NCBI GenBank assembly: GCA_048886185.1
Contig: JBHLKY010000033.1
Location: 1-32,000, forward strand
Reading direction: 5' to 3'
Length of the DNA stretch: 32,000 nt
Origin: Candidatus Hermodarchaeota archaeon
Lineage (GTDB): Archaea > Asgardarchaeota > Heimdallarchaeia > Hodarchaeales > Hodarchaeaceae
Under the pieces are notes generated by a model, which saw only the letters and a list, made by a program, of their open reading frames with translations, did no database searches and was not told the DNA's origin. Below, in pieces: positions 14,328-16,778 of the stretch. Every line of letters starts with the position of its first letter. Positions within the stretch are counted from its first letter, which is position 1. A program made the position numbers and the translations under genes.

Positions 14328-16778
14328 GTGATCCACGATCCCGTTATATATGAGATCAACAATATAAAGGAGTTATCTTTTGAGAAGACATCTAGAATTC
14401 TTCTCCTAGGTTCAAAACTTAAAATAATGCAATATTTCAGATCAAAATTTAAGAATCTTCGTCCACGTTTGATTTTCTTAGATTTATCATTGTATTATCA
14501 GGATTTCAAGAGGATAGAGAGAATTTTTAAAACCTTACAAGATACAGAGTGTCCTCAGATCAGCGAAATAAATGGGAATTTTTGGAAAAAAGTAGAAAGA
14601 ATATTTGAAGACTGCAAATTAACCTTATGTGATGATGGATATATCGCTGTTAAAGTGAATGGAACAATCAAATCAGATGTAAAATCTAAATTAGATATCA
14701 TTTTTGGTCATGACCAATTTGTTAATGAAATCATCATCGATTCTCCTTTTAAGCTCTGGTATGCTCCCAACTCTACAGTGTTTGAGAGAACCAATTACAT
14801 TATGCTTTATTCACAAAATCTTAACCAACGAATTAAACCTGTGTTAAATGAAAAAGTGAGTGGAGGATATTGGCACTCTTTCGTCTCTAAAGGACAGGGT
14901 AAGGCCAAAAGGTTTAAATTTCGGGATGGTAAAGAAATTATCTTGACTCCTCCCCTTGGGACTCATTGGAAATTAAAACAAAAAACAATCCTAGAGCTAT
15001 GTGAAAAAGGGGAAATTCGTTTAAATAAGAAGGGGAATCCAGAATATTGGGTTCCTTTAAAAAAGGGACAAATTATTGACTCCAATTGGTTAGATATACA
15101 AAGCTATGAATGGAATCATGACCAAAACGTTATCAATTCTTCGGATCTATATAATCGTTTATTTAGTATGTGTTTAGATGGGGGGGATCTCTATCTTGAT
15201 TTATCTACGAATTTTGGAACCTCTTTGGTTGTTGCAAGTCGATTACAGTTAAAATGGATTGGATTAGAAGAAAATAAGTATAAATTTAAATTAATAATGA
15301 AAAACTTAATAGAAAAAGGGATCCATTTTTGTGTATATGACTGTGAATCTCTTCCTGATTCTCTGAATAATATAAAATACTCTTATCATGAAAAGGACTT
15401 AAGTACTTCTGTTGATGACTCACATAGTCTTGAAAAACTATCGCTACAGCTGATTGAGAGGTATAATATTCAAAATTTGAATTTCAATTTGGAATTAATA
15501 GGTAATTGGTCAAATAAACTGATTTTAGGCGATAGTTATGATGTTTTACGACTTCTAAAACCTAATTTTCAGAAGAAGGTTAAAGTTATTTACATTGATC
15601 CTCCATTTTTCACGGGAACTAATGAAAATATAGTAATTCCAATAGGTCTATCACAACCACTTGGGGTTAACAAATCAGATATACATCTTTCAGTTGAGGA
15701 TTTAGCATATAACAATGTCCTAGATGTTTCAAATCCTATCAAATTCTTTATGCAATGGTTCAAGAAACGAATTGAATTGATGAAATCCCTTTTATGTGAT
15801 GATGGCTTTATTTTTGTTCGTTTTGATTATCATTTTGGTCATTATGCAAGAATGATCTTAGATGAAGTATTTGGTCGCCAAAATTTTATCATTGAATTTT
15901 TAGTTCGAAGAATGAAAAAAAATCTATCAGAAAGACAAGCTTTTAAACAAACACATCTAATCGTCCATTCAGACTCGTTATTAGTATATCAAAATAGCGA
16001 AGAAGCAGATTTAAATCCTTCAATCGTCAAAAAAATAAGGCGTAAGAACCAAGACTTTGCTGAGAGTCAATATTCTAATGATAATATTTGGTTAGATATT
16101 GCTGGTTATGAAAAGCATAAAAAAACTCTTTACCCAACGGAGAATTCAGAAATTCTTCTTTCCCGAATAATACAGATCTCCTCAAAAAAAGGGGATCTAA
16201 TTGCTGATTTTTTCTGTGGTTCTGGAACTACCGCTGCAGTAGCAGAGAAATTAGGACGAAAATGGATTGCTGGTGACATTAGCCGTTATTCTATTCATGA
16301 AACAAAAAAAAGAATTTTGAAAATGCCTAAAAGTGCTTCTTTTGATCATTTTGAATTATCTGGATCTCAAACCTCTACATCTGTTAATCAAGGACTCCAA
16401 TCGGAATTTAGTATTGATGATGAATCATTACCAACTGATGTACCTGTTCCAAAAGTAGAATTGAAAATAAACATTAACAGAAATCAAATAACAATTAATA
16501 TCGTCCAATTTATCCCCAGTAATTCATTAAATAGTTCCATAAGACATAACTACATTGATTTTATCGATTTCTGGGCTGTAGATTGGGATTGTCAAGACAA
16601 AATATTTATGCCACAATGGTATTCATATCGGGAAATGAGAGGAAAAAAGGTGGTTAAGAATATTCAAGCATCAGCAACTCATGAGTACTCCAATCCTGGA
16701 AAGTATTTACTAGGTATTTCGCTTGTTGACGTTTTTGGGAATAGAACTAAACAATCCATGACCATTGACATACAGTGA
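14328..16778 (+). CDS. Beta-class (Mod/YhdJ-like) DNA methyltransferase with an internal tandem duplication: degenerate N-terminal copy plus intact C-terminal copy
   Basis: The C-half has IYIDPPF (aa 424-427 = DPPF) before DFFCGSGTT (aa 627 onward) and the typical [14 protein letters not shown] tail. The N-half aligns with it but reads IFLDLSLY and DLSTNFGTS. Confidence 0.88.
   Translation: [816 protein letters not shown]

Follow-up and report, generated by a model that had tools for sequence, protein, structure and literature searches.

A single-chain methyltransferase of Asgard archaea with a degenerate and an intact beta-class copy, most likely derived from a Type III Mod

The gene that concerns us here lies in a stretch of 32,000 nucleotides (from now on, the window) of contig JBHLKY010000033.1, from the genome of a Candidatus Hermodarchaeota archaeon (assembly GCA_048886185.1), and encodes a methyltransferase (MTase) in which a degenerate and an intact copy of the same fold follow each other in one chain. 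A Pfam scan of the 816-aa protein detected a single family, PF01555 (N6_N4_Mtase), with a main match at aa 418-660 (E 1.6e-43) plus a second, weaker stretch, and its whole-protein score of 149.6 bits against a cut-off of 26.7 places it in this family. The gene starts 23 bp after the end of an MFS transporter gene, and a UPF0047/YjbQ gene starts 192 bp after it. We refer to the N and C halves as the reader and the writer, and the features of the gene are as follows:

14328..16778, + strand: whole gene of the fused reader-writer methyltransferase; GTG start, 816 aa, stop included
14385..15362, + strand: N half (reader), aa 20-345, degenerate beta-class MTase fold, as judged by profile comparison with the C half, an AlphaFold2 model (AF2; mean predicted local distance difference test, pLDDT, 88) and 37.4 bits to PF01555
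14481..14492, + strand: degenerate motif IV, aa 52-55, reading DLSL instead of the DPPF of the C copy
14838..15095, + strand: Mod-type insert, a putative reduced target recognition domain (TRD), aa 171-256, ending in NWLD; the most conserved region of the protein
15198..15224, + strand: degenerate motif I, aa 291-299, reading DLSTNFGTS instead of DFFCGSGTT
15363..15503, + strand: linker between the halves, aa 346-392, with pLDDT below 50 over 346-367 and 383-391
15504..16367, + strand: C half (writer), aa 393-680, intact beta-class MTase lacking the insert and carrying the main PF01555 match
15597..15608, + strand: motif IV, DPPF, aa 424-427, with D, P and P invariant and F in at least 90% of homologues
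16209..16232, + strand: motif I, FFCGSGTT, aa 628-635, the S-adenosylmethionine (SAM)-binding loop, assigned from sequence
16443..16775, + strand: C-terminal beta-sandwich, PKD-like, aa 706-816 (Foldseek to the PKD1 domain 6aem, E 1.1e-4), common to Res-linked Mods

The first-pass annotation, made from the letters of this DNA, had proposed that the protein holds two alignable MTase copies, and the self-alignment that it suggested bears this out. BLASTP of residues 1-400 against residues 401-816 gave an E-value of 2e-9 (25% identity over ~248 columns), and comparison with hhalign of the profiles of the two halves, built from 33 full-length homologues, gave a probability of 99.7% and an E-value of 5.8e-26 over 264 aligned columns. 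Moreover, when the halves were scanned singly against PF01555, the N half by itself passed the cut-off, and the C half reached 124.5 bits. The C copy retains DPPF before FFCGSGTT, which is the order of motifs IV and I that defines the beta class, whereas the N copy has indeed lost both DPPF and the FxGxG loop, DLSL and DLSTNFGTS being found in their places. Since the N half fails in both motifs, only the C half fits the catalytic definition. The spacing between the anchors shared by the two copies is also exactly as had been described, 93 aa in the N copy (Y161 to W254) versus 34 aa in the C copy (Y554 to W588); SGGYWHSF begins at nt 14859, and every quoted segment is present in the protein.

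A comparison of the regions of the protein, expressed as mean pairwise identity over the 33 aligned homologues, revealed a very uneven conservation. The insert reaches 0.72, with 30 of its 86 positions invariant, versus 0.37 and 0.28 for the N scaffold; the C half shows 0.60-0.64, the C-terminal domain 0.34 and the linker between the halves 0.16. Because the insert is so much more conserved than the scaffold that bears it, we conclude from these alignments that the dead N copy is under purifying selection, focused on the insert, and an N half free of such selection, which the annotation had given as a reason to abandon its proposal, is not what we observe. The available orthologues (45-60% aa identity) are saturated at synonymous sites. 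Among PDB entries, the N-half profile found Type III Mods first (6k0w, 1.5e-14; Mbo45V, 2e-11; EcoP15I, 1.6e-8), and the insert, with the pattern GYWH..KGQG..PPxGTHWKxKQxxI..G.IRLN, aligns to residues ~280-344 of the Helicobacter pylori Mod 6k0w, in the Mod central region. The model of the N half superposes on EcoP15I Mod (4zcf_A) with Z 22.1 over 308 of 345 residues, insert included, whereas the TRD-less enzymes MboIIA and CcrM align only ~225 residues to it. On the basis of this difference, sequence and model alike identify the insert as a reduced Mod-type central (TRD) region, so the central region expected of a Type III Mod is found in the N half and is missing from the C half.

Both halves adopt the expected fold in the models. 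The C half matches the H. pylori Mod with Z 26.3, MboIIA with 23.9 and CcrM with 22.9 (beta-class MTases overall, Z 20-26), and the N half, modelled alone, finds beta-class MTases at Z 19-22; Type III Mods are likewise the best PDB sequence matches of both. The full-length model has a predicted template modelling score of 0.82. When the halves were modelled as separate chains, their interaction prediction score from aligned errors (ipSAE) was 0.82, in comparison with 0.00 for the best of three controls; of 80 solved complexes, 58 attain the mark used for this score, as do 2 of 110 mismatched pairs. Agreement among the three runs extends to at least 96% of contacts, with a partner pLDDT of at least 77. 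Equivalent segments contact each other reciprocally, N 112-155, 162-178 and 249-256 against C 501-548, 555-565 and 574-589, as exemplified by the contacts N152-C585/586 and N251/252-C544/545. The predicted interface is therefore pseudo-two-fold and isologous, as one would expect if the halves paired like the subunits of a beta-class dimer, and to this extent it agrees with the packing anticipated by the annotation. By analogy with such dimers, the insert would face the pocket of the C copy.

The ancestry of the protein was approached by searching 1.8 billion representatives with the N half, followed by look-ups of gene context. On one side, there are stand-alone active MTases with a single domain (~330 aa), which share the insert core and have DPPF/Y and FxGSG (P0137, P0142, P0150 and P0156). 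A closed 1.4-Mb Asgard genome (L010) carries an ordinary Type III pair, with a Mod of 621 aa and a Res of 845 aa. This Mod has no insert, is 36% identical to the C half of the window protein (E 2e-46), and its last 110 aa match the C-terminal beta-sandwich (E 4e-15), a domain whose identity to the C-termini of the G001 Mod and of the L011 and L012 writers is 30-33%. Two other loci (L007 and L011) show a three-gene order, reader (599 aa), Res (870/872 aa, with ResIII and RE_endonuc) and writer. Their readers have ELPY or DLPY at the DPPF position, and their writers show 52-53% identity to the C half (E 5e-99 and 2e-90), with the same C-terminal tail. L006 is a decayed example of the Res-linked form, in which a fragment of Res and an IS66 transposase are found. 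Finally, adjacent split pairs are found at L005, where a 310-aa reader is followed after a gap of 16 bp by an open reading frame (ORF) that matches the C half from residue 396 onwards with 48% identity, and at L012, where a 342-aa reader precedes a 556-aa writer, also 48% identical to the C half, and no Res lies within 7 kb.

Motif IV is degenerate in all the reader-type copies, and motif I is kept in some of them (FSGSG, FAGTG, FVGSG) and lost in the window clade; all writers retain both motifs. One clade of split readers (L012 7001-8029, which is P0268, together with P0127 and P0269) shows D-(L/F)-P-P-Y at motif IV, with the Asp shifted by one position, and an intact FCGxG; judging from these letters, its members may not be fully dead. 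In a tree of reader domains, all the dead copies group together (100/100) to the exclusion of the active single-domain enzymes, and fused, split and Res-linked forms are interleaved within the tree, its well-supported branches forcing at least two changes of the label 'fused'; the label 'split' was verified by gene context for two of the six rows that carry it. The window clade, of 17 fused sequences, is monophyletic (100/99).

A further difference between the forms is a conserved middle domain of ~110-140 aa without Pfam match. It separates the MTase domain from the C-terminal beta-sandwich in those Mods, readers and writers that are linked to a Res, as well as in the L012 writer (aa ~349-511 in the L010 Mod, ~357-465 in the L011 writer, ~311-450 in the L012 writer and ~369-480 in the Res-linked reader P0132). 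It is missing, according to a multiple alignment, from every fused form examined, and it might dock Res or bind DNA. The relation between the C-terminal part of the L007 reader and that of the window protein is visible only in such a multiple alignment, BLASTP between the two giving no match. A search of genome and metagenome contigs with P0132 returned no further relative, so the count of three-gene systems rests on L007, L011 and the decayed L006. Relatives of reader and writer exist both split and flanking Res, and the L010 Mod has the writer domain and the beta-sandwich in common with the window protein. From this, we take the latter to be, most probably, a heteromeric Type III Mod whose subunits have been fused. 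It is this ancestry, with its split adjacent pairs and its reader-Res-writer triads, that is newly seen here.

With regard to the Type III systems themselves, the window gene departs from the definition in two points. No Res adjoins it, its neighbours matching MFS_1 and UPF0047 and not a helicase or nuclease, in contrast with its relatives at L007, L011 and L010, which have a Res, and at L006, which keeps the fragment mentioned above. Nor does it form a competent homodimer (Mod2), the two copies being non-identical and one of them lacking motifs IV and I; in its mode of action it would resemble a Mod2, without being a standard Mod. The L007 Res, used as query, found nothing in the source genome (96% complete) or in nine genomes of the genus, and the same query does recover the L010 system elsewhere in the phylum, so it works as a probe. 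The close orthologues of the methylase are concentrated in one genus, and the gene is syntenic across the contigs L001, L002 and L004 of the window clade; it is therefore a vertically kept orphan and not a mobile restriction-modification (R-M) cassette, with a cellular role that would be epigenetic or protective.

Altogether, we regard the architecture of this protein and its origin with high confidence, and we consider it likely that its product is a pseudo-heterodimer in one chain, descended from a Type III Mod and made of a dead reader and a live writer. That the two halves really divide reading and writing on DNA is, in our view, also probable. The proposal of the annotation, a dead reader plus a live writer in one chain, is in this way supported in every part that could be computed: the folds, the selection on the insert, the predicted pairing and the existence of separate reader and writer genes. 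According to the model that we favour, an ancestral Mod would have been duplicated, one copy (the reader) losing motif IV and keeping the Mod-type insert, and the other (the writer) keeping DPPF and FxGSGTT without the insert; in the window clade, reader and writer would then have been fused in this order, with loss of the middle domain. The halves would fold back on each other through the isologous surface used in beta-class homodimers, so that the insert of the reader and the catalytic face of the writer form one DNA-binding cleft. The reader would contact an asymmetric site and the target adenine would be flipped into the DPPF pocket of the writer, which would supply both the SAM and the adenine pockets and methylate the base at N6, leaving N6-methyladenine (m6A) on one strand only. 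N6-adenine enzymes typically carry DPPF, as do Type III Mods; a double-stranded DNA substrate and N6-adenine chemistry are presumed here.

Several observations weigh against this interpretation, or at least against its stronger versions. The core of the insert (GYWH..PPxGxHW..) is conserved as well in stand-alone active MTases of ~30% overall identity, and it varies much less than the TRDs of classical Type III enzymes. Such a pattern suits a general DNA-binding framework better than a module for specificity, and the insert may thus not be the whole specificity determinant. If the insert does set the sequence specificity, as we presume, this may depend on a few of its variable residues, or other parts of the protein may do so. 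Another difficulty comes from L010, whose insert-less Mod sits next to a Res, so that an enzyme of the same family presumably recognises DNA by other parts. As for the dead copy, the motif IV Asp of the reader persists in at least 90% of homologues, and some distant or split readers still carry FxGxG; because of this, its pocket may not be empty and may still bind a ligand, and a dead pocket with an Asp might even sense a base or its methylation state. Lastly, the pairing score may partly reflect the resemblance to solved beta-class dimers, and it indicates likeness and not binding.

Some of these observations feed the alternative that survives best, in which the N half does no more than stabilise or activate its live partner, in the way of METTL14 with METTL3 or of the dead C-terminal domain of PRMT7, and recognition resides in basic loops of the writer or in the C-terminal beta-sandwich. 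Two such loops (RRMKKNLS, 527-534, and RRKNQD, 571-576) are invariant and have low model confidence, which suggests that they become ordered on ligand binding; the insert core is shared by active single-domain MTases and by Mods of other specificity; the L010 Mod manages next to its Res with no insert at all; and in PRMT7 a dead copy is already known to activate the live one within the same chain (PMC10908127). Under this alternative, however, one would have to explain why the most conserved part of the whole protein is the insert and not the dimer interface or the scaffold. Moreover, the insert is homologous to the DNA-contacting central region of Mods, superposing on it in chain A of EcoP15I Mod, and in beta-class dimers the region at its position faces the active site of the partner (PMC7544214). 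We therefore hold a merely structural N half to be unlikely, and keep the division between reader and writer as the preferred explanation.

A second alternative concerns the substrate. The protein could have been recruited to RNA or single-stranded DNA, or could act on an exchanged base together with its upstream neighbours, instead of being a classical m6A methylase of DNA. These neighbours (window 9345-14304) are a tight run of genes for a DUF362 protein, a DUF6884/YaaA-like protein, a 358-aa protein weakly similar to tRNA-guanine transglycosylase (TGT, of the TGT/DpdA-like type) and the MFS transporter, which together with the methylase make a five-gene run with intergenic gaps of 9-26 bp; it recurs in L001 (1328-7981), L004 (2890-7864) and partly L002 (5379-7988). 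The lack of any detectable Res in the source genome and in the nine genomes of the genus, and the fact that some beta-class MTases act on single-stranded DNA or RNA (PMC7544214), would fit this idea as well. The run is nevertheless limited to the window clade, the more distant fused or split members of the family (L003, L008 and L012) lying in unrelated contexts without the DUF362/DUF6884/TGT-like/MFS genes. L001, L002 and L004 share with the window a much wider synteny (HflX, subtilase, TFIIB), so common descent may be enough to explain the adjacency, and the TGT-like assignment is weak (E 0.002, below the cut-off). In addition, the nearest relatives of both halves are components of Res-linked Type III systems, which act on duplex DNA. 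An argument for a functional operon with the TGT-like genes, based on synteny across the phylum, was considered and rejected, since the close orthologues are confined to one GTDB genus (8 of 9); the labels 'Thor', 'Prometh' and 'Heimdall' of L001, L002 and L004 probably overstate the distance between those contigs. A functional link of the methylase with the DUF362, DUF6884, TGT-like and MFS genes is thus unlikely, and we see this second alternative as improbable, more so than the first. Around the same run, we also observed that in L002 an EamA transporter substitutes for the MFS protein, at another position, and that a 326-aa ORF without Pfam match is transcribed divergently beside it in the window.

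That the fusion is an assembly artefact or a read-through of two genes, the organism making two proteins in fact, has a negligible probability, despite the split versions of reader and writer in other organisms and the break at 16198-16228 (with alternative flanks) in the Logan unitigs of the sediment runs X2 and X4, because the same unbroken frame occurs in ~55 homologues from independent assemblies and in eight other genomes of the genus, the linker has no in-frame stop, a single contig spans the entire gene, and the breaks fall within the C half and not at the junction (15363-15503), overlapping the coding region of motif I (16209-16232), which in PF01555 is common to many paralogues of this genome. 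The search for the same architecture that the annotation had recommended thus yielded these ~55 fused homologues, of 745-867 aa and 37-60% identity, covering most of the query, and the artefactual joining that it had feared finds no support. All the named homologues among them come from Asgard archaea. The uninterrupted frames of the genus measure ~790-834 aa (8 of 9 genomes, G062 being the exception with no hit), and beyond it only patchy distant relatives were found among 200 genomes of the phylum. The spanning contig, a Logan contig of 7135 nt, covers 14086-17000 without difference, and comes perhaps from the source sample, hence is not independent evidence. The contigs of runs X2, X3 and X4 cover parts of the methylase gene only and are uninformative on absence; the breaks are likely due to k-mers shared with paralogues or strain variants, and one T>C variant was seen at 16217.

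Other MTase-like genes were noticed along this work. The window encodes at 6738-8093 (+ strand) a 451-aa protein with a UPF0020 match at aa 33-78 (a motif I-like N-terminus) followed by positions 1-123 of PF01555 at aa 245-400, which from its sequence looks like a circularly permuted or alpha-order relative; similar genes of 446-486 aa lie near the fused methylase in L001 (1-1231), L004 (1548-2915) and L003 (3910-5370). On the minus strand of the window (21376-25364), ORFs of 719 and 596 aa occupy the syntenic position of L001/L004 genes matching PF02384 (N6_Mtase) and PF07669 (Eco57I). The contig L008 (3398-12053, labelled Promethearchaeota) shows a dCTP deaminase/dUTPase-like gene surrounded by an island of four PF01555 genes (337, 758, 763 and 726 aa); we considered that all of these might share the architecture described here and discarded this, as only the 763-aa protein is a fused reader-writer. 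The beta-class repertoire of the source genome (G000) is unusually large, with 37 PF01555 matches that make up ~25 loci besides the methylase (e.g., C29:37508-39112, C1:152073-153038, C11:146131-147654 and C12:61207-62694). In several of them the halves of the profile appear in reversed order, and several have in-frame stops and may, to judge by these, be pseudogenes.

Going one step further than the single-chain derivative of a Type III Mod that we prefer, a bolder scenario can be drawn, which we offer tentatively, as it is more doubtful than the former. Asgard archaea would harbour a subclass of Type III R-M systems with an obligate heteromeric Mod, in which a dead reader and a live writer flank the Res. 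These would have been fused or split more than once, and one genus of the Heimdall group would have lost the Res, retaining a vertically inherited, strand-specific m6A writer. In the literature that we searched, we found no PF01555 enzyme described as combining a dead and a live copy in one chain, and no Type III system with two Mods, REBASE being outside this search. The interest of the family would be manifold. In a homodimer, the two roles are genetically inseparable because a single gene encodes both, whereas the reader/writer family would separate reading and writing into non-interchangeable domains or genes. The model of division of labour in beta-class DNA/RNA adenine MTases rests on a few homodimer structures, and this family would be a natural test of it by mutation, deletion and domain swap. 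The series Mod-Res, reader-Res-writer, reader plus writer and fused orphan would mark a route from a homodimer to an active/inactive heterodimer, an end state that was also reached by the eukaryotic m6A writers; if this is true, the heteromeric Mod would be a prokaryotic parallel to the active/inactive logic of METTL3-METTL14 and MTA1-MTA9. The three-gene form, if functional, may represent a new organisation of Type III systems, and a compact single-chain methylase with strand specificity could serve as an experimental tool.

Among known systems, the closest are the homodimers of Type III Mods (EcoP15I Mod2; 4zcf, 6k0w, 7dsu). They share the beta-class fold (Z 22-26) and carry their insert at the equivalent place, and they assign reading to one protomer and methylation of a single strand of an asymmetric site to its partner, a principle that would hold for the window protein too; in addition, relatives of both window halves adjoin Type III Res genes. 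In contrast with them, the protomers of the window protein are different paralogues in one chain, with a degenerate reader and a writer devoid of the insert; at 86 aa, this insert is short, and it is almost invariant instead of hypervariable. Moreover, no Res was found in the genome. More generally, dimerisation is obligatory for beta-class MTases, because the TRD of one protomer is placed opposite the catalytic domain of its partner; the two Mods of EcoP15I share the work, one recognising the site and one methylating a single strand, and in CcrM, one subunit recognises and methylates while the other binds the non-target strand via its C-terminal domain (PMC7544214). The split of recognition and catalysis between subunits, which the first-pass annotation took as established for EcoP15I Mod and CcrM, is consequently only partly right as regards CcrM, where one subunit does both (PMC7544214). 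CcrM (6pbd) is otherwise a similar case, as a beta-class orphan adenine MTase that forms an asymmetric dimer and whose fold matches both window halves with Z 22-23; it differs in being a homodimer with neither dead copy nor fusion.

Fused two-domain DNA MTases are also found among the FokI-type enzymes, where both halves are active. In M.MhoVII M1-M2, two MTase domains of R-M lineage are likewise joined in one polypeptide (PMC12898733), but both are active, each contributing a methylation activity of its own, whereas one domain of the window protein is without motifs IV and I. A single chain with tandem MTase domains, one of them dead but required, is found in PRMT7 (and probably in PRMT9), where an intramolecular pseudodimer mimics a homodimer (PMC10908127). 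PRMT7, however, is a protein arginine MTase of another class, its dead copy is the C-terminal one, and it has no nucleic-acid substrate and no recognition insert. Lastly, METTL3-METTL14 and the ciliate MTA1-MTA9 (AMT1-AMT7), of the MT-A70 family, are pairs of active and inactive beta-order paralogues, and motif IV of METTL14 has been eroded to EPPL (PMC7544214). These pairs are made of separate chains and bind nucleic acids by zinc fingers or extra subunits, not by an insert in the dead copy. The window halves match MT-A70 structures with Z ~13, versus 22-26 for the PF01555 enzymes, and the protein showed no Pfam match besides PF01555 at E <= 0.01, PF05063 (MT-A70) included. The likeness to METTL3-METTL14 and MTA1-MTA9 is thus one of logic only, with no evidence of direct ancestry: an active and an inactive copy brought together, on separate chains in the eukaryotic enzymes and in a single one here.

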